Shown here in pieces: positions 2,035-62,766 of a DNA stretch of 64,000 bases. The notes under the pieces were generated by a model. The model did not search any database. It had not been told where the DNA came from and worked only from the letters and a program-made list of their open reading frames with translations. The DNA comes from an uncultured Atopobium sp. (GTDB lineage Bacteria > Actinomycetota > Coriobacteriia > Coriobacteriales > Atopobiaceae): NCBI GenBank assembly GCA_902485095.1, contig CABTJC010000011.1:197564-261563 (forward strand), given 5' to 3'. Position 1 is the stretch's first letter; each line of letters begins with the position of its first letter. A program made the position numbers and the translations under genes.

Positions 2035-3756
2035 ATGACATCAAAGATGCAGGGCCGCAGTTTTCTTGCTGTTATGTTTGTATTTTTGGCAGCTTTAATC
2101 TTTATGCCAAATATTGCATACGCTGCAAGTAACAATTCGTTCTATAACGGCACTACTACTAACGTGTCTCCTTCTGTGAGTGCGGATGGTCTTATCGAGC
2201 GTTCTATTTACTTTACAGATGCTTCTGGCCAGACATCTAACTACGCTTATAAGGATAATGACACCACTCAGATGAACCGCTCCATTGTAGATATTGATAA
2301 GTATCAGAATCTGCAGGCAGTGGTAAAGATTACCAATATCTCTTCATCTCCAGTTTCTGTTAACGAGGTTATGCAGCTGCCACTTACTTACTATGTCAGC
2401 TCAAGCCCTAATCCTGATTTGCGTGCAACTGGATTTACCTTCTCGTCAACTAATACAGCAACTGCAATTAACCTGAACATTAGTGGACTGAACGGTGGTT
2501 CTGGCTCTCAGCCTGCAGCAAATGCTTATGCTGCATACCAGGCAGCTGGTCAGGACAATGCTGAGATGCGTTCCGTTTCTGTCTCTGGTACCCTGGCTGC
2601 TGGTGAAACCATTACACTTACCGTTCCTTTGACGCTTACCAATGGTTCTACTCTTAATTTGTATGGCACCAACTATGTAGGTCTTACTCAGTACCTGCTT
2701 GATCACAGAACCTCTTACGGAAACCCTCGTGTTTCAGTCAGGTTTGCAAGGCAGGTCTTGGAAGAGGGAACAAACAATTCCATTCTTAGCAGCAATAAGA
2801 AATATCTTGGCGTAATTATTAGGCCTGACGGTAGCTATTACGCTATCCCACAGGACGAGTGGAATTACATGCCAACTATTTCTGCAAGTGATATTCACGT
2901 TGACAATATCCTGTATGAAGATCGCCACAGCGCAACGGAGAATGATGCTCTGTATACCGGCGGTGCGTACTACATTGATTTGACCAACATTAAGAATGCC
3001 ATGAGGGATTATGGCTATTCAGTTCACACTGGAAATTCCAATAGAGGACTGTACCTCAATCTTCCTGGCTGGCAGCTTGCTGTTGATAATGACCTTACTG
3101 ATGATGTGTATCAGGAGTATTCGTACACTTCTCTTTCTAGCGGCAACCTTATCATCAATGCTTCTGAGAACTCAACTGATGAGCTTGATCTTAACAATGG
3201 CGTTATTACTCCTCTTTATACAGAGCTTAGGCAGGTAGTTACGGCACACGACAGCACTATTACCGCTAACCAGGATTCCTGGACTATTCTTGATAACCTT
3301 GATGCTATGGTTGATCACAGCGCTAGTCAGGTTACCCCTGCTGCTGGTTCTGCTGACGCTCGCGTTAAGGTTGTTGATCAGAGCGGTACAGTTGTACTTG
3401 ATACAGCAACCATGGATGCAGCAACTGTTGCTCAAAAGGCAGAAGAGATTTCTAAGACTCCTGGCGCATACTCCGTTACGTATTACTATTACTTCAACGG
3501 TAATGCTGCAGCTGCAGGCAATGACTACGAGGCAGCAAAGACGGTTACCCTAACTGTTGAGTCTGATACTCCAACTCCAACACCAACTCCAGCTCCAGAA
3601 GAGCCTTCCAATCCTGCTTCTCCTGTAAAAGAGAAGAAGACAAAGAAGAAGAAAGCACAGCTTCCAAATACGGGTGAAGAGCTTCTGGTAATGCCTCTTA
3701 TGGTTATGGGTGCATCTGCTTTGACAGCCGCTGGACTTATGAAGCGTAAGCACTAA
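2035..3756 (+). CDS. Sortase-anchored (LPXTG) cell-wall surface protein, function unknown
   Basis: N-terminal signal peptide (MTSKMQGRSFLAVMFVFLAALIFMPNIAYAASN). A (TP)n/PAPEEPSNP linker and a Lys-rich stretch precede LPNTGEE, a hydrophobic segment and the positively charged tail RKH. Lower GC (~43%) than neighbours. Confidence 0.85.
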   Translation: MTSKMQGRSFLAVMFVFLAALIFMPNIAYAASNNSFYNGTTTNVSPSVSADGLIERSIYFTDASGQTSNYAYKDNDTTQMNRSIVDIDKYQNLQAVVKITNISSSPVSVNEVMQLPLTYYVSSSPNPDLRATGFTFSSTNTATAINLNISGLNGGSGSQPAANAYAAYQAAGQDNAEMRSVSVSGTLAAGETITLTVPLTLTNGSTLNLYGTNYVGLTQYLLDHRTSYGNPRVSVRFARQVLEEGTNNSILSSNKKYLGVIIRPDGSYYAIPQDEWNYMPTISASDIHVDNILYEDRHSATENDALYTGGAYYIDLTNIKNAMRDYGYSVHTGNSNRGLYLNLPGWQLAVDNDLTDDVYQEYSYTSLSSGNLIINASENSTDELDLNNGVITPLYTELRQVVTAHDSTITANQDSWTILDNLDAMVDHSASQVTPAAGSADARVKVVDQSGTVVLDTATMDAATVAQKAEEISKTPGAYSVTYYYYFNGNAAAAGNDYEAAKTVTLTVESDTPTPTPTPAPEEPSNPASPVKEKKTKKKKAQLPNTGEELLVMPLMVMGASALTAAGLMKRKH

Positions 3757-3789
3757 GACAGAGAGTTCTTCTCGTTACATGCATTTGTA

Positions 3790-3826
3790 TTGGCAGGTAT
3801 CTCTTTAGTACCTGCCAATATTTTTA
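3790..3826 (+). terminator. rho-independent terminator after the LPXTG gene
   Basis: TTGGCAGGTA (3790-3799) pairs with TACCTGCCAA (3809-3818) across a 9-nt loop, followed by TATTTTTAT. Confidence 0.7.
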
Positions 3827-4067
3827 TGGAAAAATGGACAACTGTCCAAAAATGCTTAGTCAATTTTTATGTTTCAATATAGGTAATTCCTATATGGTTA
3901 GACAAAAAGTGCAGGTAAATAGATTTTGCTGTTATCGTCGCAATTTAATGTTTCATGTCTATTTCATCCTAGGTATATATAGGTAGATGCTGGTAATTGT
4001 TTTGTATAGTTATCTGACCCCAGCAGGGTTGTCTTATAAATCGTTTTAATAAGAAAGAAGGGTTAAC

Positions 4068-5714
4068 ATGCTGGAGAACTCACTAAGCCGTCGTAATTTT
4101 TTGAAGGCATCAGGTATGGTAGCGGCTGGTGGTGGCGCATCTATGATGCTGGCTGGCTGCAATCCTTCCTCCACTGATACTCCTCAGGCATCTGACAAGA
4201 AGAAGATTCTTCGCTACGGCTCCGCAAATTCTAAGCAGGGCCTTGATATGCAGCGTGCAAACAACTCCCAGTCCGCATGTGTTGCAGACTCTGTTTGCGA
4301 GTCTTTGCTCCGTTGGACTGAGGATAATGAGCTTGTCACATGTCTGCTTAAAGAGATTCCAACCTTTGAGTCTGACGGTCTTACTCTTAAGTGCGAGCTC
4401 AAAGAGGGCATTAAGTTCCACGACGGTACTACTTTGACCGCAAAGGATGTTAAGTACACCTTTGAGCGTATGTTTAAGCCAGAAACTAAGGCTCTCTCCA
4501 CTAGCTTCTTTGACAAGATTAAGGGTGCTCCAGAGATGCTTGCCGGTAAGGCAACTGAGCTTGAGGGCCTGACTGTTCAGGATGATACTCACTTCACCTT
4601 TACACTTTCTGAGCCTTACATTGTCTTTGTAAGCGTTCTTGGTATCTCCTATGCTTGCATTTTCCCAGAGAAGGCTTGTGAGGCTGCTGGCGCTAATTGG
4701 GGTACTGGTACTAACCTCATTGGTACTGGTAAGTACAAGATTAAGAGCAATGATGACACCACTGAGGTAGTTCTCGAGCGCTTCGATGACTATCACGATG
4801 GCAAGCCTGCACTGGATGAGATTCGTATTCACTACTACGATGACACCAACACTCAGCTGCTTGCATTCAAGAACAACGACATTGACTTCTGCGACCTTCC
4901 ATCTTCTCTGTACCAGCAGTATTCAAGCGATGCTGACGTTAAGGACCTCATTACCGCATATCAGACCCTTGGCGTTAACTTCATCAACCTTAACCTCAAA
5001 GAGGGTCTGGGTCTGACTGATCCTAAGGTTCGTCAGGCACTTTCTCTGGCAATCAACCGTCAGGAGCTTGTTGACAACATTGCTTCCGGTAACGGTACCG
5101 TTGCAAGTGGTTGGCTTGCTCCTGCAACACCTGGTTACGACAAGAGCGCAGCTGCATTTGCATACGATCCAGAGAAGGCTAAGTCTCTACTTGCTGAGGC
5201 TGGTGCATCTGACCTTAAGCTTTCTGCAAAGGTTAGAAAGTCTTACGAAAAACTCCTTGTTGCTGTTCAGGAGTACTGGAGCAAGGTTGGCGTTACCCTT
5301 GATGTTCAGGTAGAGGACAACGCAGTCTGGAATACTGACTGGGCTGCTGGTAACCTCCAGATTACTACCCTTGCTTGGTATCCACTGTTTGCCGATGGTG
5401 ACCAGCACCTGTACACCTACTTCTACAGCACTAACGCTGCAAAGAAGTCTTCCTTCTATAACAACCCAGAGTTTGACAAGCTCCTTGTTGAGGGTCGCTC
5501 TGAGTCTAACAAGGATAAGAGAACAGAGGATTACAAGGACGCAGATAACCTGCTGACTCGTACAGACTTTGCAACACTTCCTCTGTACTGGCCAAAGAAC
5601 TCCTTTGTCGCTAAGAAGTACGTCAAGAACGCTAAGGTTGGAAACTTGATCTATCACTTCTTTGATATTGATATTGATACATCAAATTCCGATTACACCG
5701 TTCCAGAGGACTAA
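4068..5714 (+). CDS. ABC transporter substrate-binding lipoprotein, family 5 (oligopeptide/dipeptide OppA/DppA-like)
   Basis: Twin-arginine signal RRNFLK followed by lipobox LAGC; 548 aa with family-5 SBP architecture; first gene of a five-gene operon with two permeases and two ATPases. Confidence 0.88.
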   Translation: MLENSLSRRNFLKASGMVAAGGGASMMLAGCNPSSTDTPQASDKKKILRYGSANSKQGLDMQRANNSQSACVADSVCESLLRWTEDNELVTCLLKEIPTFESDGLTLKCELKEGIKFHDGTTLTAKDVKYTFERMFKPETKALSTSFFDKIKGAPEMLAGKATELEGLTVQDDTHFTFTLSEPYIVFVSVLGISYACIFPEKACEAAGANWGTGTNLIGTGKYKIKSNDDTTEVVLERFDDYHDGKPALDEIRIHYYDDTNTQLLAFKNNDIDFCDLPSSLYQQYSSDADVKDLITAYQTLGVNFINLNLKEGLGLTDPKVRQALSLAINRQELVDNIASGNGTVASGWLAPATPGYDKSAAAFAYDPEKAKSLLAEAGASDLKLSAKVRKSYEKLLVAVQEYWSKVGVTLDVQVEDNAVWNTDWAAGNLQITTLAWYPLFADGDQHLYTYFYSTNAAKKSSFYNNPEFDKLLVEGRSESNKDKRTEDYKDADNLLTRTDFATLPLYWPKNSFVAKKYVKNAKVGNLIYHFFDIDIDTSNSDYTVPED

Positions 5715-5798
5715 GTAGCAAACTTGCTATAAACTTTAAAGCGGCATCTAAGATTCTTGGATGCCGCTTCATTTTCTTGAGGGGAGAGGAGCTCAGGA

Positions 5799-6734
5799 GT
5801 GAGATCGTTTCTAATCAAACGAATCCTTCAAGCAGTGAGCGTTGTAGTTTGCATTTCTGCTTTAACGTTTTTTGTCTTGAACATTGTCCCAGGTGACCCA
5901 GTACGAGTCATGATGGGCGATATGGCTGATGAAGCTACGGTTCAGCAGGTCCGTCACACCATGGGTCTTGATAAGCCAATTCCAGAGCAGTATGCAAACT
6001 GGTTTGTAAAAATGCTTGGCGGAGATTTTGGAACTTCTTACACTCAAAAGCGACCTGTCATTGCACTTCTGACTAAGGCTTTGGGAGTTACGCTACGCTT
6101 AGCAGTGTTTGCGTATCTTTTTGCCATAGTATTTGGTCTTTTGATGGGTATTCTCGCCGCAGTAAACCATGGAAAATGGCTTGATAGAACACTTATGTCA
6201 GCTGCAATCTTTGGTATTTCTGCCCCTTCATTCTGGGTGGCATTAGTACTGCAGATTATTTTTGCTATGACGCTTAAGTGGTTCCCGCTATCAGGCGTTA
6301 AAACACCATCCGCCTACGTTCTTCCTGTTATTGCGCTGGGTTCTCGTTATGCAGCAAGTATTGCTCGTGTTACCAGGACTAGCATGCTGGACGTATTAAA
6401 TCAGGACTACATTAGAACCGCTGAAGCTAAGGGCTTAAAGCGCTCCGCTATTGTTTTGAAGCACGCGCTCAGAAATGCTCTTATCCCAATTATTACCATT
6501 GCTGGATCTCAGCTGGGAGACATCCTTACTGGTTCCATCATCATTGAACAGATCTTCAACATGAACGGTATGGGTAAGCTGCTTATCGATGCAATTAATG
6601 CTCGTGACCTGCCGCTGATTCAAGGTAGCGTCATGTACGTGGCAATTATCTGCGTTGTTATCTATCTGCTTGTTGATATTTTGTACGCAGTGGTTGATCC
6701 ACGCATTCGTCTTGGAGAGGAGGCATCAGAGTAA
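5799..6734 (+). CDS. ABC transporter permease (OppB/DppB-like)
   Basis: 311 aa, six predicted TM segments, conserved permease loop motif (YIRTAEAKGL). Confidence 0.88.
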   Translation: MRSFLIKRILQAVSVVVCISALTFFVLNIVPGDPVRVMMGDMADEATVQQVRHTMGLDKPIPEQYANWFVKMLGGDFGTSYTQKRPVIALLTKALGVTLRLAVFAYLFAIVFGLLMGILAAVNHGKWLDRTLMSAAIFGISAPSFWVALVLQIIFAMTLKWFPLSGVKTPSAYVLPVIALGSRYAASIARVTRTSMLDVLNQDYIRTAEAKGLKRSAIVLKHALRNALIPIITIAGSQLGDILTGSIIIEQIFNMNGMGKLLIDAINARDLPLIQGSVMYVAIICVVIYLLVDILYAVVDPRIRLGEEASE

Positions 6735-7690
6735 TGGCTTTGTTTACAAGCGATAAAAATAGCGAGAAGGTCCAAAAGACCGAAGCTGTACTTGAAGATG
6801 CCGCCAAGGCTCAAGAAGCAGAACAGGCTGCCACGGGAAAAGTCCGTGCGCAGAGCTATTGGCAGGTTAGCTGGAACATCTTTAAGAAAAATAAACTGGG
6901 CATGATTTGCTTGGGCATTGTTTTGGCGCTGGTAATTATTGCAATTCTTGCTCCTGTTCTTGCTCCCTATGGCTACAAAGATCAAAACCTTTCAATTCAG
7001 AATCAGAATCCAACATTTGCACATCTGCTTGGCACTGATGAATACGGCCGAGACATTCTTTCTCGTATTATTTACGGCTGCCAGATTTCTCTTTCTGTTG
7101 GTATTATTTCGCAGGCAATTGCCCTGTTTATCGGCTTTGTAGCAGGAGTTGCAGCAGGATATTATGGTCGCTGGGTTGATGCAGTTGTGTCTTTTATCAT
7201 CCAGGTTTTCTCCAGCTTCCCATTCTTGCTCTTTGCAATTTTGATTATGTTTGTTATGGGTCCAGGTCTCATTAACCTCTATATTGCATTGGGTCTTTTG
7301 ATGTGGACTACCACCGCAAGGCTGATTCGTGGCGATGTCATGCGCCTGAAGAATTCTGAATACATTCAGTCTTGTATTCTGTCTGGCGGTAATAGCTTCC
7401 GCATCATCATGAAACATCTCTTGCCTAACTGTATGTCAACGCTGATTGTTGTTTCTACCTTGGGCATTCCAAGCGCAATTCTTTCGGAGGCAACACTTTC
7501 GTTCTTGGGACTAGGCGTTCAGCCACCTGAGGCAAGTTGGGGCCAAATGATTGCAGCATCTCAGCCATACCTTGCATCACAGCCTCTCTACAGTATTGCC
7601 CCAGGTATTGTCATCATCATTACAGTTATGTCTTTCAACTTGCTTGGCGACGCCCTTCGCGACGCCCTTGATCCAAAGATGCGTTCTTAG
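6734..7690 (+). CDS. ABC transporter permease (OppC/DppC-like)
   Basis: 318 aa polytopic membrane protein with N-terminal cytoplasmic extension; ATG overlaps the upstream stop (TAATG). Confidence 0.88.
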   Translation: MALFTSDKNSEKVQKTEAVLEDAAKAQEAEQAATGKVRAQSYWQVSWNIFKKNKLGMICLGIVLALVIIAILAPVLAPYGYKDQNLSIQNQNPTFAHLLGTDEYGRDILSRIIYGCQISLSVGIISQAIALFIGFVAGVAAGYYGRWVDAVVSFIIQVFSSFPFLLFAILIMFVMGPGLINLYIALGLLMWTTTARLIRGDVMRLKNSEYIQSCILSGGNSFRIIMKHLLPNCMSTLIVVSTLGIPSAILSEATLSFLGLGVQPPEASWGQMIAASQPYLASQPLYSIAPGIVIIITVMSFNLLGDALRDALDPKMRS

Positions 7691-7706
7691 AAAGGAGGTT
7701 ACGTTT

Positions 7707-53791: not shown

Positions 53792-54859
53792 ATGTCTAAA
53801 GAAGAGCTTCAGAATAAAGACGAGAAAAACGTCTCCATTGATGCAGGTCTTACTAACGCTGAGCGTGAGCTTCAGGCAGATGCTAAGTCTGACAATAAAG
53901 AAGTTAAAAGAATTAGCTATGCTGGCCTGATTACAAGGCGTTTCTTCCGCCAGCGTTCTGCAGTAATCGGCTTGATTATTCTTGGAATTATGGTTCTCAT
54001 TGCAGTTTTTGGACCATATGCCACCCCATTTAATTACACAGATGCTGACTTTACTGCAATTAACATGGCTCCTAATGCAAAGCATTGGTTTGGTACTGAT
54101 GGTGCCGGTATTGATCTGTATGCTTGCGTTGTCCACGGTCTTGGTCGTTCTTTGACCATTGGTATTAGCTACGCAATCTTGACCACTATCATCTCTGCAA
54201 TTATTGGTACTGCCATTGCCTATGTCCGTGGTATTCCAGAGAAGATTGGTATGTGGCTTCTTGATATGCTCATGGTCATTCCTAGCTTCTTGCTGGTTGC
54301 TATGATTGTTCGAGCAGCAGGCGGTGAGTCTGGTTGGCTCATGCTTATATTTGGTCTGACTGCGTTTGGTTGGATTGGTCGCGCACGTACTATCCGTACC
54401 ATGGCTCTGTCTCTGCGTGAGAGAGATTACGTCAAGGCCGCTAAGTACATGGGTGTTCCACCATTTACCATCATTGTTCGTCACCTTATTCCAAACCTTG
54501 GTTCAATTCTTATTATTGACTTGGTCTTGGCTGTTATTGGTGGTATTAACTCTGAGACAGCATTCAGCTTCTTGGGTCTTGGTATTAAGGCACCAGATAC
54601 TTCCCTTGGTTACCTTCTGAGTGCTGGTTCTTCTGCAATGCTTACTACTCCATGGATGATTCTGATTCCATCGGCATTTCTGATCATTGTTTGTGTTGGC
54701 CTGCAGCTCATTGGCGATGGCCTTCGCGATGCCTTTGACCCTTATTCACGCGCTGCTGGTAGCGTCAAAGATCAGGAAGAGGATTCTTCCAAGGATGACG
54801 CTCAGCTCGGCGATCTTGAGGGTAGCATCGTTTCTGAAGAAACTACGGAGCGTGCATAA
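53792..54859 (+). CDS. ABC transporter permease (OppC/DppC-like)
   Basis: 355 aa; N-terminal ~60-aa charged cytoplasmic extension then a six-TM core. Confidence 0.88.
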   Translation: MSKEELQNKDEKNVSIDAGLTNAERELQADAKSDNKEVKRISYAGLITRRFFRQRSAVIGLIILGIMVLIAVFGPYATPFNYTDADFTAINMAPNAKHWFGTDGAGIDLYACVVHGLGRSLTIGISYAILTTIISAIIGTAIAYVRGIPEKIGMWLLDMLMVIPSFLLVAMIVRAAGGESGWLMLIFGLTAFGWIGRARTIRTMALSLRERDYVKAAKYMGVPPFTIIVRHLIPNLGSILIIDLVLAVIGGINSETAFSFLGLGIKAPDTSLGYLLSAGSSAMLTTPWMILIPSAFLIIVCVGLQLIGDGLRDAFDPYSRAAGSVKDQEEDSSKDDAQLGDLEGSIVSEETTERA

Positions 54860-56892
54860 TGTCTGACACTACTACTACTTCAACAAAGCAGGGAAGTGTA
54901 GAGATGGACGATGTCCTTCGCTACGAACTGCTTGAATCAAACGGCCCAAAGGGCGCTCCAACAGGAGATCCAGTTCTTTCTGTTCGTGACCTTAAGGTTT
55001 CCTTTAATACTGAGGCTGGTCGTGTAGACGCAGTTCGCGGTGTTAACTTTGACCTTTGGGGTGGCCGTACTCTTGGTATCGTAGGTGAGTCTGGTTCTGG
55101 TAAGTCAGTAACCGCTCTGTCTCTTATCGGTCTTCTTGATGACAATGCTCACGTTACCGGCTCTATTAAGCTTGGTGACGAGGAGCTTATTGGTAAGACC
55201 GATGAAGAGATGTCACAGCTCCGTGGTACTAAGATTTCTATGATCTTCCAGGATCCACTGTCTGCTCTGACTCCAATGTTCTCTATTGGAGATCAGCTTG
55301 CAGAGGCTCTGCTTACTCATAATCCTCACATGAGCAAGGCAGATGTCCGTAAGCGTTGTATTGAGCTTCTCTCCATTGTTGGTATTACTGATCCAGAGAA
55401 TCGTCTGGATTCTTTCCCTCATGAGTTCTCTGGTGGTATGCGTCAGCGTGTTGTTATTGCAATTGCTATTGCAAATAACCCTGACATCATCATTGCTGAC
55501 GAGCCAACTACTGCTCTTGACGTAACTATTCAGGCTCAGATTCTTGACGTCTTGAAGGTTGCGCAGAAAGAGACCGGTGCAGCAGTTGTTCTGATTACTC
55601 ACGACCTTGGTGTTGTTGCAGGTACTGCTGATGACATTATGGTTATGTATGCAGGCCGCGGCGTAGAGCGTGCAAGCGTTGATACACTTTTTGCTGAGCC
55701 TCGCCATCCTTATACCATGGGCCTTCTGGGTGCTGTTCCAAAACCTCACCTTCAGGCAGAGCATAGGCTTGTTCCTATTAAGGGCAATCCACCATCACTT
55801 GCAGCCATTCCAACTGGTTGTCCTTTTAACCCACGTTGTCCTATGGCTACCGAGGAGTGCTCCAAGAAAGAGCCAGTTCTACTTCCTGCAAATGCTGCTG
55901 AGGGTCACTTGGCATCTTGCCACCACCTTCAGGAGATTTGCGAGAAGAACCTCACCTATGCTGAGGTGTATCCAGACTTTGAGCCAATCCTTCCAAAGTG
56001 GGTTGACGTTCCTCGTAATGAGCGTCCTGTTGTGCTTAAGGTTGAGAACCTTACCAAGACATTCCCTGTTCAGGGTAAGGGCTTTATTAGGCGCAGCAAG
56101 GGCACTATGACTGCAGTTGACCGTGCAAGCTTTGAGATCCATGAGGGAGAAACCCTTGCGCTTGTTGGTGAGTCTGGTTCTGGTAAATCAACAACTCTGA
56201 TGCAGATTATGGATTTGCTGAAGCCTGAGGATGGTCGTATTACGGTCCTTGGCAAAGATGTTGCTGAGCTTAAGAATGCTGCACAGCGTAGAGAGCTGCG
56301 TAAAGATCTTCAGGTTATCTTCCAAGATCCAATGAGTTCTCTGGACCCACGTATGCCTGTCTATGACGTTTTGGCTGAGCCACTTCAGGCACAGGGTTGG
56401 AACAAAGAGGATATTAATACTCGTATTGGCGAGCTCATGCGTCTGGTTGGTATCAACCCAGACTATGTTGACCGCTTCCCATCCCAGTTCTCTGGTGGTC
56501 AGCGTCAGCGTATTGCTATTGCTCGTGCTCTTGCAACAAGTCCAAAGATTCTTCTCTTGGACGAGCCAATTGCATCTCTGGACGTTTCCATTCAGGCAGG
56601 TATTATTAACCTCCTTGAGGATCTTCAGGTTCAGTTGAAGATTTCTTATCTCTTTGTTGCTCACGATCTTGCTGTTATTCGTCATATTTCTGACACGGTT
56701 GCTGTTATGCACCTGGGCAAGATTGTTGAGTACGGTGAGACTGAAGACGTCTTTACTAACCCACAAGATCCTTACACTCAGGCGCTTCTCTCGGCTATTC
56801 CAATTCCTGATCCAAAGATTGAGCGTACCCGTGAGCGCATGATCTACCAGGATGGTAAGCTGGTTCCTGCTACTCACATCTCTAACGAGTAA
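54859..56892 (+). CDS. Fused tandem ABC ATP-binding protein (OppD-OppF-like duplicated ATPase)
   Basis: Two complete nucleotide-binding modules in one 677-aa ORF: GESGSGKSVT/FSGGMRQR/IIADEPTTALD and GESGSGKSTT/FSGGQRQR/LLLDEPIASLD. Confidence 0.9.
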   Translation: MSDTTTTSTKQGSVEMDDVLRYELLESNGPKGAPTGDPVLSVRDLKVSFNTEAGRVDAVRGVNFDLWGGRTLGIVGESGSGKSVTALSLIGLLDDNAHVTGSIKLGDEELIGKTDEEMSQLRGTKISMIFQDPLSALTPMFSIGDQLAEALLTHNPHMSKADVRKRCIELLSIVGITDPENRLDSFPHEFSGGMRQRVVIAIAIANNPDIIIADEPTTALDVTIQAQILDVLKVAQKETGAAVVLITHDLGVVAGTADDIMVMYAGRGVERASVDTLFAEPRHPYTMGLLGAVPKPHLQAEHRLVPIKGNPPSLAAIPTGCPFNPRCPMATEECSKKEPVLLPANAAEGHLASCHHLQEICEKNLTYAEVYPDFEPILPKWVDVPRNERPVVLKVENLTKTFPVQGKGFIRRSKGTMTAVDRASFEIHEGETLALVGESGSGKSTTLMQIMDLLKPEDGRITVLGKDVAELKNAAQRRELRKDLQVIFQDPMSSLDPRMPVYDVLAEPLQAQGWNKEDINTRIGELMRLVGINPDYVDRFPSQFSGGQRQRIAIARALATSPKILLLDEPIASLDVSIQAGIINLLEDLQVQLKISYLFVAHDLAVIRHISDTVAVMHLGKIVEYGETEDVFTNPQDPYTQALLSAIPIPDPKIERTRERMIYQDGKLVPATHISNE

Positions 56893-58936: not shown

Positions 58937-59026
58937 GTCGGAGTGGCGGAATTGGCAGACGCGCTAGCTTGAGGTGCTAGTGACCTACTAACGGTTGTGC
59001 GGGTTCAAGTCCCGCCTCCGACACCA
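58937..59026 (+). tRNA. tRNA-Leu (anticodon GAG), type II with long variable arm, encoded CCA
   Basis: Acceptor stem GTCGGAG/CTCCGAC, D-arm GGCGGAATTGGCAGACGCG, anticodon stem-loop CTAGC-TTGAGGT-GCTAG, long variable arm, T-arm GCGGGTTCAAGTCCCGC, 3' ACCA. Confidence 0.85.
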
Positions 59027-59035
59027 CGGAATTTC

Positions 59036-59064
59036 GGCGGATCTCTTCGGAGGTCCGCCTTTTT
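59036..59064 (+). terminator. rho-independent terminator with UUCG tetraloop after tRNA-Leu
   Basis: CGGCGGATCTC pairs with GAGGTCCGCC (one G-U wobble) around loop TTCG, followed by TTTTTCG. Confidence 0.8.
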
Positions 59065-59114
59065 CGTATACTTAGACTATGTGATTTGTTTTTCCTTGCT
59101 GGTAAGGAGTGACT

Positions 59115-61406
59115 GTGGCAGATAACAAGCTGAGCGTAAGGCGTGTTGAGGGAGTTGTCGACGGAACCGTTGCTGCAACTCTGTCTCAGTTGCTGCGCCT
59201 GACCAGCGATGCAGTCATTGTTTTTAATATGGAGGGCACAGTTCTTCTCGCCAATGAGGAGGCCGAAAGCTTATTTGCTAAGGAAGACGGCACCATTGCC
59301 GGCCTGGATGTTCGCTTTTTGTTCACGCCGGCAAATCAAGAGAACTTACAGAAACCGTTCTTTGTAGAGTCGCTGCCGTTTGCGATTGATGGCTCCACTT
59401 CCATGGTGGCCGCTCCTGCGCAAGATGGCACGTCGCAGGTTTTGAGTGTGCGTGCGGATTATGTTGGTGCGCCTACACAGGCTATTGTTTTGACTGCCTC
59501 TAAGCTTCGTGACATGGCTAGCCCTATGCACGATGATGAACGAATGGTCTTGGACCTTCGTCGAGCTAATAAGAGGCTCTCAGGAGCGCTTCAGATTGTT
59601 TTGGACACGCTTGACTCGGAAGATATGGGTCAGCTTATCGAGCGCGTGTTAGAAGAGCTCTCAGAGACTGTCGAGGCTGATGGTGCGCTTATCTATCTTG
59701 CTGAGCAAGACGGGTATCACCTTCATGGTGCAACGGAGTCTTTGAGAAGTGCGTCATTGGATAGAATTCCTCGCTACTTTGCATTTAACAGCTCTCTGGA
59801 GCGTTTGACGTTTTATTCCGAGCACGCACTTCGCTTGCATACCATGCCTTTGAACTCTAGCGCGCTCAAGCAGGGAAGAGTTAAAAAGCGCAACCTTGTT
59901 AACGAAGAAACTCGTGAGGTCATAACCGTTGACGCAAGTCATTTGCCTCCGTTTACCAGCTTTCTTGTGGTTCCTGTGTGGTTTGGTGGCCACATTGTTG
60001 CTCTGATTGAAGTGGGCTGGGAGCGTAAGCGTGCGCTTTTGGTTGAAGACGCACGGCTTCTGGACTCCATTGCAAATTACCTCTCGGTACAGCTTGTGGG
60101 CGCGTTGTCGGCCATGAGAACGCAGCGTAGAGATGCGCTTCGCGAGGCATTAGCTCGCGTGCGCCAAGGATTGCTTCATAGCGCTGCAGAGGGCGAGAAA
60201 ATCTCTGGTGAGCGATTACAGCAGGTTATGAGGTCGGTGGGTACTGATCTCTCTGCACAGGTTTTCTCGGTAGATTGCTGTGAGGTCACAGGCAACATTA
60301 CGCTCCATGCGCTTGGCGCTGAGCAAGCTGCAGCCGGGACCGGCGTCGCGCAGGATGGCGGCAAACAGATTGCGCTTCCATCGACGGTTGAGGGGCTCAA
60401 GACAGGGGAGGGCCAGGCGTCGGTCAAAGAGGTCGAGCTGGATTCTGCGCTGAGTCGCGCGCTTGCTGCACAAGGTTTGCCGTGCAAGGGAGCTGTGCTC
60501 TTTTTGGGTAAGTTTGCAGGTGAGCAGCATACCTGGCTTTTCTTGCGAGAAGAAAACGCTGAGCCTCTGAGCGATATTGAGCTTGATTTCTTGGATCGCG
60601 TGATGCTTCTGGTCCACTCGTTGGCCGTTGGTGCCGAAGAGAGCCAGCAAAATAAGCATATCTCCCAGGCGCTGCAGTCGGGCATGAAAAATGAGCTGCA
60701 GCAGGTTGAGGGAATCTCTGCCGAGGGAATTTATTCATCCGCAACTGCTGATGCGTTTGTCGGCGGCGATTTTTACAGCATGATTAAGCTGCCTGGTCGT
60801 CGCGCGTGCATCATTATGGGTGATGTTTCTGGCAAGGGCATTGAGGCGGCTTCTATTTCGTCCGCAGTTAAAACGGCACTTTCTGCCTACGCGTGGGAGG
60901 GAAGAACTCCTGCTCGCATGGTAGCAACGCTCAACGAATTCTTGCTGGGCTTCTCAAGGGTTGAGACGTTTGCGACGCTCTTTGTCGGTATTGTTGACCT
61001 TGCAACCTCATCGCTTATGTACTGCTCAGCTGGCCATCCACCAGCGATTTTGGTGTCTGCTCAATCAGGTGACGCCGAGCTTTTGGACGTACAGTCGGGC
61101 GTTGTGGGTGCGTTCCACGACATGGAGTACAAAAACGGCACAGTTCGTTTGCATGAGGGCGATATCTTGCTGCTTTACACCGACGGAACCACAGAGGCTC
61201 GAAGCCCTGAAGGCGCTTTCTTTGGCGAGACTGGACTCCGTGACATGATTATGAACGAGGTTCCCCAAGGCTTTGACGGCCTTTTGAACAGGTTCTTGAG
61301 CACGCTTGATCGCTACACCGGCCGAAGGCTTGATGACGACGTTGCTATGGTGGCTCTGCGCTTTGACGAGCTTGGCGGTGGCGACTCTGGTGAGAAGAGC
61401 AACTAG
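59115..61406 (+). CDS. PAS-GAF-(GAF-like)-PP2C serine phosphatase (RsbU/RsbP/SpoIIE-like)
   Basis: N-terminal PAS-like region, GAF-like middle region(s), C-terminal SpoIIE/PP2C motifs (FVGGDFYSM, GDVSGKGIEAASISSAV, YTDGTTEAR). GTG at 59115 is 5 nt after AAGGAG; the track GTG at 59109 is also possible. Confidence 0.85.
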   Translation: MADNKLSVRRVEGVVDGTVAATLSQLLRLTSDAVIVFNMEGTVLLANEEAESLFAKEDGTIAGLDVRFLFTPANQENLQKPFFVESLPFAIDGSTSMVAAPAQDGTSQVLSVRADYVGAPTQAIVLTASKLRDMASPMHDDERMVLDLRRANKRLSGALQIVLDTLDSEDMGQLIERVLEELSETVEADGALIYLAEQDGYHLHGATESLRSASLDRIPRYFAFNSSLERLTFYSEHALRLHTMPLNSSALKQGRVKKRNLVNEETREVITVDASHLPPFTSFLVVPVWFGGHIVALIEVGWERKRALLVEDARLLDSIANYLSVQLVGALSAMRTQRRDALREALARVRQGLLHSAAEGEKISGERLQQVMRSVGTDLSAQVFSVDCCEVTGNITLHALGAEQAAAGTGVAQDGGKQIALPSTVEGLKTGEGQASVKEVELDSALSRALAAQGLPCKGAVLFLGKFAGEQHTWLFLREENAEPLSDIELDFLDRVMLLVHSLAVGAEESQQNKHISQALQSGMKNELQQVEGISAEGIYSSATADAFVGGDFYSMIKLPGRRACIIMGDVSGKGIEAASISSAVKTALSAYAWEGRTPARMVATLNEFLLGFSRVETFATLFVGIVDLATSSLMYCSAGHPPAILVSAQSGDAELLDVQSGVVGAFHDMEYKNGTVRLHEGDILLLYTDGTTEARSPEGAFFGETGLRDMIMNEVPQGFDGLLNRFLSTLDRYTGRRLDDDVAMVALRFDELGGGDSGEKSN

Positions 61407-61464
61407 ATAGTCTTCTCGTCAACTAAACGATTTTCTCGTCAAAAAAGGCAGATATCTGAAATTC

Positions 61465-62223
61465 TTGTTGCTGCGCGGGAACAAGAAACGTATGTATACG
61501 CAGCCAAACATAGCAGTTGTTTCAGTCAATACTGACCTTGACGTGAGGGGAGTTCCGCGCGTGAAGGCTCAGATTGAGCAGCTCATTGATAGCGGCTGCA
61601 GAAGAATTGTGCTGAATATGTCGGAGGTTTCGTACATCGATTCATGCGGCATGGGCTTTATCGTGTGCGCTGTTCGACGCATGAAGACGCTCGGTGGTCT
61701 TATGAGCTTGACCAACGTGCAGCCAACGGCGTTTAAGGCGCTGGTACGCATGGGTCTTATCGATTTCATGCCTATAAGTACCTGCGCCGCAAAGTCGCGC
61801 GTGACTCCGCTTGCACCGGGCACGCATCCATCGTTTCAGACAACGTTTAGAGTTGATCCCAATAAAATGTGCGACGCTCGCTCAAGGGCTATCGCGCTGC
61901 TGAAGACGCTGCCGTTTACCTCGGATCAAAAGTTTGACATTGAACTTGCAGTTGGCGAGGCTATTGGCAACGCCGTTGATCACGCGTGCGAGAAGGGCGT
62001 GCTGACCACGGTCTCCGCGTATCCAGACAGAGTGGTCATTGACGTCTCGGATTGCGGTGGTGGTTTTAGCGTCTCCGATGAGGAAGAGCCTCCCGAGACC
62101 GGCCAGTTTGCCGAGCGTGGACGCGGCGTTAAGCTGATGCGCCTGCTTATGGACGCCGTGTCTATCCAGGAGAAACCTTCCGGCAACGGCACCATTGTTC
62201 GCCTGGTCAAGATGATGCGCTAG
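61465..62223 (+). CDS. Fused anti-sigma-factor antagonist (STAS, N-terminal) and RsbW-like anti-sigma-factor serine kinase (HATPase_c, C-terminal)
   Basis: Residues ~15-115 form a STAS domain with phosphorylatable-Ser context YIDSCGMG. Residues ~135-250 form an RsbW/SpoIIAB-like GHKL kinase (GEAIGNAVDHA N-box, DCGGGF G-box). A TTG start is predicted; the ATG at 61492 is an alternative. Confidence 0.75.
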   Translation: MLLRGNKKRMYTQPNIAVVSVNTDLDVRGVPRVKAQIEQLIDSGCRRIVLNMSEVSYIDSCGMGFIVCAVRRMKTLGGLMSLTNVQPTAFKALVRMGLIDFMPISTCAAKSRVTPLAPGTHPSFQTTFRVDPNKMCDARSRAIALLKTLPFTSDQKFDIELAVGEAIGNAVDHACEKGVLTTVSAYPDRVVIDVSDCGGGFSVSDEEEPPETGQFAERGRGVKLMRLLMDAVSIQEKPSGNGTIVRLVKMMR

Positions 62224-62274
62224 GGCGTGTGGGTTGCGTGCGCAGGTTGCGTACGCAGGTCACAAGTGATTTCA

Positions 62275-62310
62275 ACCCGGTATCTATTTCGTGTGGATAC
62301 CGGGTTTCTT
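62275..62310 (+). terminator. hairpin terminator after the STAS-kinase gene
   Basis: AACCCGGTATC pairs with GATACCGGGTT (11-nt loop), followed by TCTT; T-tract weak. Confidence 0.5.
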
Positions 62311-62329
62311 GTGCGAAAGCGCTGTTAGT

Positions 62330-62720
62330 GGACGGGTTTCTCGCCAGGCGGGTGGCGTGAGCTGAGTGTGAGCCTGCTGCAAGCCTGATTTTCTCGCCAA
62401 GTCTGAACGATTTGCCTGAAAAACGTACCATGTCTGAGCTATTTGCCGGTTTTTCTCGCCATGTCTGAGTAAATTTACTCAGACATGGTGGGGCTTTCAG
62501 GCTCGCAAAATTTGGAGACAACACCCTAGTTAGAACGTGCCTGATTTCTGCAAAGAATCTGTAACTTCTGCCTAAATAAGTAAAAGAATCGGTGGATTTG
62601 CCTGATTTTGTCAAAGAATCGGTGTCTCAAATACAGATTCTTTGCACTTTTCAGGCTCGTCTGACTAAAACGTTTGCACTTTTCAGGCACGCAATCCAGA
62701 ATTCCAGCAAGCACGGTCGC
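62330..62720. repeat. Repeat-dense non-coding region (interspersed ~15-25 bp direct and inverted repeats)
   Basis: Four classes of direct repeat are interleaved with two inverted repeats. TTTTCTCGCCA[A/T]GTCTGA occurs at 62388 and 62450, with a partial copy at 62335. TGCCTGATTT-N-CAAAGAATC[T/G]G occurs at 62537 and 62599. TTTGCACTTTTCAGGC occurs at 62639 and 62683. CATGTCTGAG occurs three times. There is a perfect 14-bp inverted repeat CATGTCTGAGTAAA/TTTACTCAGACATG at 62460-62489 and a 9-bp inverted repeat CAAAGAATC/GATTCTTTG at 62612-62644. Confidence 0.5.
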
Positions 62721-62727
62721 GCGCGAC

Positions 62728-62756
62728 AAAAAGAAACCCCAGCCGAAGCTGGGGTT
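62728..62756 (-). terminator. rho-independent terminator after tRNA-Cys (minus strand)
   Basis: Minus-strand hairpin CCCCAGC-TTCG-GCTGGGG followed by TTTCTTTTT. Confidence 0.7.
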
Positions 62757-62766
62757 GTCAATTCAC

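Follow-up and report, generated by a model that had tools for sequence, protein, structure and literature searches.

The locus described here lies in a stretch of 64,000 nucleotides (the window) from an uncultured Atopobium sp. of the Atopobiaceae (assembly GCA_902485095.1, contig CABTJC010000011.1, positions 197,564 to 261,563 of the forward strand). This DNA matches the Lancefieldella (Atopobium) parvula group. The locus consists of two co-directional open reading frames on the plus strand: gene A (59115-61406), encoding a sensor phosphatase of 763 amino acids, and gene B, which ends at 62223 and encodes an RsbV-like STAS domain and an RsbW-like GHKL serine kinase in one chain. Together they probably form a two-gene partner-switching module of the Atopobiaceae, in which antagonist and kinase share a polypeptide. 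All features of the two genes, and those flanking them up to the hairpins after gene B, are on the plus strand.

The mechanical open reading frame of gene B opens at TTG 61465 and gives a 252-residue reading. The Met encoded by ATG 61492 shows no variation among the aligned relatives and is the first residue of most of them, so gene B most likely starts at this ATG (61492-62223); this gives a product of 243 amino acids and an intergenic gap of 85 nucleotides, in place of the 58 counted in an earlier note on this DNA. That note had also read the gene as a single open reading frame with STAS ahead of the kinase, and the hidden Markov model searches agree. In the 252-residue reading, STAS covers residues 9-105 (61492-61779; E 9.6e-17; PF01740, 61.1 bits against a threshold of 22.6) and HATPase_c_2, the RsbW/SpoIIAB-type kinase domain, residues 130-249 (61852-62211; E 7e-20; PF13581, 71.8 bits against 27.4), while the NCBIfam model ant_ant_sig (TIGR00377) scores 63.9 bits against its cutoff of 53.45. 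The STAS domain aligns with SpoIIAA (1th8_B), and the YIDSCGMG phosphosite context pointed out earlier is present: its Ser (codon 61642-61644; S51 of the 243-residue protein, S60 of the 252-residue reading), the predicted phospho-acceptor, aligns to Ser58 of SpoIIAA, in a column occupied by Ala in the 1tid_B sequence. This Ser is kept within D-S-x-G in 75 of 76 relatives, and the kinase motifs in all 76 (N-box E156/N160/H164, G1 box D187xG189xG191, G2 box E208-R-G-R-G212). Between the domains lies a segment of ~24 residues (61780-61851), near-fixed in length across the alignments, with the consensus motif LDPSVLPxWRTTF.

The AlphaFold2 model of the gene B protein (mean predicted local distance difference test, pLDDT, 85.6) gives the same picture in Foldseek. 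Its C-terminal half matches SpoIIAB and RsbW (1thn, 1til, 1l0o, 6m36) with template-modelling (TM) scores by target length of 0.70-0.89, and its N-terminal half matches SpoIIAA at ~0.71-0.75. The best match to the whole chain is LvrC (PDB 9qih; E 1.1e-8) with a root-mean-square deviation of 19 A, which shows either a different domain arrangement or one that the search did not match.

Gene A, whose product is 100% identical to a public protein (P0304), starts at GTG 59115, five nucleotides after the ribosome-binding sequence AAGGAG (59104-59109, read from the sequence); database orthologues begin at the same residue, and this is the start proposed earlier. The PAS-GAF-PP2C architecture proposed for it also stands, with SpoIIE and GAF above their Pfam thresholds and PAS recognised through an orthologue profile. 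The Pfam PAS models stay under their gathering score (PAS_4, E 0.003, 18.2 against 23.1 bits). When the N-terminal 140 residues of four orthologues were made into a profile and compared with the PDB, FixL PAS domains were found (E 3.5e-5), and every one of the 23 listed matches is a PAS-type sensor protein; a PAS-like domain at about residues 23-107 (59181-59435) is therefore supported. The GAF domain follows at 59619-60086 (GAF_2 E 7.7e-10, GAF E 4.9e-8, both over the gathering score), and then a middle region of unassigned fold (about residues 331-545; 60099-60743), the least conserved part of the protein, for which the orthologue profile found no relative in the PDB. The PP2C/SpoIIE catalytic domain closes the chain (60795-61364; E 1.8e-45; PF07228, 155.7 bits against 25), with the motifs GGDFY, GDVSGKG, YTDG and DDDV; the metal-binding Asp residues D552, D570, D690, D741 and D742 are invariant in the four orthologues, at 50-59% identity, and the closest solved relative is Rv1364c (3ke6, E 3.4e-18). 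Gene A thus combines the catalytic Asp motifs and the N-terminal sensor domains of a PP2C/SpoIIE partner-switching phosphatase. A public search with the protein returned near-identical proteins only, among the matches listed, and an AlphaFold2 model built with 11 near-identical sequences aligned had a pLDDT of 30.8 and was not used.

Within Lancefieldella parvula, strains 95-100% identical in this phosphatase differ in its length, from 763 to 795 amino acids, the window holding the shortest form. An Ala/Gly/Gln-rich insertion of 0-18 residues varies between strains after about residue 405, and the C-terminal tail (~61370-61403) carries a variable number of tandem octapeptides LGG[A/T]DSGx before the C-terminal EKSN.

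Genes A and B look like one transcription unit, because the 85-nucleotide spacer (61407-61491) holds no terminator-like site and strong hairpins follow gene B. The spacer folds no better than its shuffles (z -0.9). The two hairpins (62225-62306; RNA fold -53.8 kcal/mol, z -7.0) begin just 3' of the stop codon of gene B, the second preceding UUUCUU, and are the probable end of the transcription unit.

The order of the domains in gene B is that of a familiar gene pair. By tblastn, 99% of the fusion aligns colinearly with rsbV and rsbW of Clostridioides difficile, which are separate genes there and are followed by sigB; the 243 residues of the fusion protein nearly equal the 105 and 135 of C. difficile RsbV and RsbW. 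Because of this colinearity and the near absence of extra length, gene B reads as an in-frame fusion of a canonical rsbV-rsbW pair that has gained hardly any linker. The same two features would suit an artefact, in which a sequencing or assembly frameshift, or a strain-specific loss of a stop codon, joined two separate genes. Such an error is vanishingly improbable here and is refuted by the breadth of independent assemblies in which the fusion occurs: of 186 relatives in 90% identity clusters, the 120 listed, from many independent assemblies, all carry both domains in one protein of ~242-308 amino acids, so that gene B is not a stand-alone STAS protein in any of them. The exact protein of the window is indexed in 219 blocks of the collection, and a contig scan with one protein located 58 loci, all in Lancefieldella/Atopobium and most full-length at 92-100% identity. 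Olsenella and Paratractidigestivibacter are the sources of the named relatives, which carry the annotation anti-sigma factor antagonist; across public annotations the products appear as anti-sigma factor antagonist, RsbW kinase or ATP-binding protein.

The linkage of the two genes is conserved as well. Across seven Atopobiaceae lineages (48-100% identity) the order is an opp-type ABC transporter, the GAF-SpoIIE phosphatase, the fusion, a CmpB-like protein, a cysteine desulfurase-like aminotransferase, MnmA and LPG synthase. The GAF-SpoIIE gene is directly 5' of the fusion in six of the seven; in the seventh it lies ~5 kb upstream, across a GntR/GH1/phosphotransferase system (PTS) cassette. The pair is therefore a conserved chromosomal module of the Atopobiaceae, and where the cassette splits it, the fusion gene must be expressible on its own. 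The cassette itself (positions 2979-7704 in loci L062 and L063) comprises a GntR regulator, a GH1 glycosidase and PTS EIIC/IIB/IIA components.

A cognate sigma gene in the same operon is absent from all seven lineages over 6-10 kb. No sigma-factor Pfam domain occurs on genes within 10 kb on each side in L. parvula, nor within 6-8 kb in the six other lineages, so the earlier observation that no sigma gene is adjacent holds at these distances. A tblastn search with C. difficile SigB had no match in the 64-kb window, nor in the fetched loci, which total about 1.1 Mb; over the same window and loci, RsbV and RsbW queries recovered only the fusion itself, and no second STAS gene was found. PADLOC returned zero matches at the locus, and the neighbours are housekeeping genes. 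The term 'sigma-less' is valid for the gene neighbourhood only. It is quite conceivable, if a little short of an even prospect, that this is an ordinary anti-sigma system in unusual packaging, whose kinase sequesters a sigma factor of the SigB/SigF type with its gene at another chromosomal site. The nearest relatives in sequence and structure, SpoIIAB and RsbW, are anti-sigma factors, the authors of LvrC, the best Foldseek match, propose the same role for it, and such a function is compatible with the two-gene module, which leaves its partner open. Against it stand the lack of any sigma-domain gene at the distances above, the lack of a SigB-like match in the window, and the many partner switches known to act on other targets, such as SiaABCD (PMC9239204) and CapK/CapS (PMC13373217).

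On a wider scale, domain order was scored on the best 150 hits of an exhaustive search of 1.84 billion cluster representatives. The STAS-then-kinase order is present in 81 of these 150; 73 of the 81 carry the acceptor Ser/Thr and all 81 the N-box Asn. The earlier note had implied that this order is rare, which does not hold: it is the canonical rsbV-rsbW order fused, it has been published for CapK and VapK (PMC13373217), and it is common in sequence databases. In most of the distant fusions (25-35% identity) the Pfam domain limits are ~25-28 residues apart, with 38 in P0266. One distant fusion, P0205, has a relative annotated to an Armatimonadota bacterium, and the fusion gene of this group is an orphan, having neither a PP2C nor a sigma gene beside it. 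The literature search found nothing on the gene B family or on an RsbV-RsbW fusion in STAS-then-kinase order with a retained acceptor, and nothing specific on partner switching in Coriobacteriia.

Some members of this wider set have features of their own. The eight of the 81 fusions without an acceptor Ser/Thr (among representatives P0121-P0270) include at least three with Glu at that position, possibly as a permanent phospho-mimic. A fusion in the reverse order (P0220) and a double-STAS protein (P0257) also exist. P0143, a metagenomic protein of 573 amino acids, is a CDF cation-efflux transporter with ZT_dimer and a complete STAS-HATPase_c_2 unit at its C terminus, a hint that the single-chain switch can also be joined to effectors other than sigma factors.

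In the two-gene module that we favour, the kinase domain would, with ATP, phosphorylate Ser51 of the tethered STAS domain, either of its own chain or of its dimer partner. The phosphorylated STAS would then leave the kinase domain, which would become free to hold a partner protein. On stimulation of the PAS and GAF sensors, the adjacent PP2C phosphatase would remove the phosphate from STAS, which would re-dock at a very high local concentration and release the partner; the latter would be encoded elsewhere and could be a distal sigma factor or a non-sigma protein. Phosphorylation in trans within a dimer is as conceivable as the intramolecular route. A precedent by analogy for phosphorylation between kinase and STAS in one chain, and for its reversal, is Rv1364c of Mycobacterium tuberculosis, in which Ser600 of STAS receives a phosphate from the kinase domain of the same chain and the PP2C domain strips it off (PMC9138534).

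Several points weigh against this mechanism. The domain identities, the conserved catalytic and acceptor residues, the gene linkage and the empty sigma neighbourhood are observations, whereas the biochemical steps, the choice between cis and trans, the signal and the output are read from conserved residues, linkage and the behaviour of homologous systems. Because the fusion adds almost no linker to what two separate proteins would have, it is in question whether the STAS Ser has access to the active site within its own chain, and the predicted TM-score (pTM) of the gene B model, 0.61, gives no confident placement of the two domains relative to each other. Sigma binding is not transferable by orthology, because the protein falls far under the equivalog cutoffs for RsbW and SpoIIAB (NF003144, 40.7 against 145 bits; TIGR01925, 42.9 against 135); the NCBIfam SpoIIAA equivalog model is also far under its cutoff. 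The link to a phosphatase is not universal, because the fusion is an orphan in more distant lineages, and in CapK and VapK the internal STAS beside a GHKL kinase is not the substrate (PMC13373217).

A bolder version of the two-gene module, which we regard as rather doubtful, would make it a complete non-sigma switch. The partner might then be a non-sigma protein, or the fusion itself might serve as a phospho-timer that consumes ATP and signals the energy state. The small genomes of host-associated Atopobiaceae would have this switch as a core element, and the conserved inter-domain segment, fixed in length, would impose a defined geometry, cis or domain-swapped, without parallel in two-protein systems.

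The flanks of the module are as follows. Upstream of gene A is tRNA-Leu(GAG) (58937-59026; ARAGORN; Rfam tRNA, 55.1 bits), with a terminator-like hairpin after it (59036-59059; 10-bp stem with seven GC pairs, then TTTTT); the phosphatase gene thus directly follows the tRNA and its terminator, as had been described. Downstream of the putative transcription unit, 540 nucleotides of non-coding DNA lead to tRNA-Cys and tRNA-Gly on the minus strand, which are the next genes, again as described. In the spacers Rfam matched only tRNAs and no other family.

The spacer between gene B and tRNA-Cys (62224-62766) holds, at window positions 62383-62694, two adjoining arrays of 24-25-nucleotide repeats, both with a repeat spacing of 30-31 nucleotides. 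The unit of the first, GCCTGA-N12-TGTCTGA, is present in three direct copies and one inverted copy, and this array contains a perfect 30-nucleotide palindrome (62459-62488); the unit of the second, TGCCTGATTT-N3-CAAAGAATC-N-GT, is present in three direct and two inverted copies. Both are found nowhere else in the window and have no Rfam family match; next to tRNA genes, they have the look of either a set of protein-binding sites or what is left of a small mobile element. Upstream, at 54859-56892 of the window, the Opp-type ABC ATPase is a single protein of 677 amino acids with two ABC_tran/oligo_HPY units, which in other Atopobiaceae (loci L060, L074 and L076) are separate genes of ~340-384 codons; it is a second lineage-specific in-frame gene fusion near gene B.

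Partner-switching modules are a major logic of bacterial signalling, and debate continues over how the response is set by the stoichiometry of antagonist, kinase and target and by the competition among them. When antagonist and kinase occur naturally in one chain, their ratio is locked at 1:1 and their local concentration is maximal, which makes such a protein a convenient minimal system in which to study the switch. In addition, few other signalling modules can be recognised in this commensal and opportunist of the human mouth and gut, whose genome is reduced. Should its output prove to be non-sigma, it would join a growing list of non-transcriptional uses of the partner switch. The advance is incremental, because the components are standard, the architecture is common in databases and the products are already annotated publicly. 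What is new is that the Atopobiaceae conserve RsbV-RsbW as a single chain, with a PAS-GAF-PP2C partner dedicated to it.

Among known systems, the RsbV-RsbW-SigB and SpoIIAA-SpoIIAB-SigF switches of Bacillus and Clostridioides, with their phosphatases RsbU, RsbP and SpoIIE, have the same three activities, namely a D-S-x-G STAS antagonist, a GHKL serine kinase and a PP2C phosphatase, and the same antagonist-then-kinase order. In contrast to these, antagonist and kinase are here one polypeptide, no sigma gene lies 3', and the phosphatase gene, with PAS and GAF sensors, is directly upstream. OsaC of Streptomyces coelicolor, which acts on SigB, combines an RsbW-like kinase, PAS, GAF and PP2C in one protein. 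It resembles gene A in placing PAS and GAF sensors ahead of PP2C in a partner-switching regulator, and differs from the gene A/gene B pair in carrying the kinase on the phosphatase polypeptide and in having no STAS domain.

Leptospira LvrC (PDB 9qih) is a REC-Bergerat protein that its authors propose as an anti-sigma factor, with the sigma factor unidentified (PMC13269768). Like the gene B protein, it tethers an N-terminal phospho-acceptor domain to an RsbW-like Bergerat domain. The acceptor of LvrC is REC, phosphorylated on Asp by a histidine kinase, whereas that of gene B is predicted to be a STAS Ser served by the attached kinase.

CapK (HTH-STAS-GHKL) and VapK (STAS-GHKL), the kinases of the CapK/CapS and VapKSC systems (EMBO J 2026, PMC13373217), also have STAS N-terminal to a GHKL serine kinase in one chain. 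Their internal STAS helps to form a groove that binds single-stranded DNA, which activates them, the STAS protein that they phosphorylate is a separate one from a neighbouring gene, and their output is not a sigma factor (PMC13373217). By the same logic the STAS of gene B could be a regulatory or ligand-binding partner, with the kinase directed at a different protein, with or without STAS, from elsewhere in the genome; the shared domain order and the orphan fusions without a PP2C neighbour in other lineages would fit. This is unlikely. With the CapK sequence of E. roggenkampii, taken from the source data of PMC13373217, hhalign against the gene B family gives a probability of 1% (E 0.054) over 40 columns around the N and G1 boxes, and Pfam does not recognise STAS in CapK, whereas the STAS of gene B is clear and retains its acceptor Ser. 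Here a PP2C gene lies next to the fusion, no second STAS gene was found in the window or the fetched loci, and the context is non-defence, PADLOC having matched nothing. Neither a sequence relation to CapK nor an adjacent CapS/VapS-type gene in a defence island is thus seen, and by the hhalign result and the lack of a Pfam-recognisable STAS in CapK, the gene B family is not CapK-like in descent.

Rv1364c is a single PAS-PP2C-kinase-STAS polypeptide (PMC9138534, PMC10950880), the order opposite to that of gene B, as the earlier note had said. Rv1364c has a link to SigF; the gene B protein is not known to have one to any sigma factor. The Atopobiaceae module does not place four domains in one chain with the kinase before STAS: it has two genes, STAS precedes the kinase, and the phosphatase adds GAF and the unassigned middle region. 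Common to both are a kinase covalently joined to a STAS domain and a PP2C with a PAS sensor, which resets the switch in Rv1364c and would do so here.

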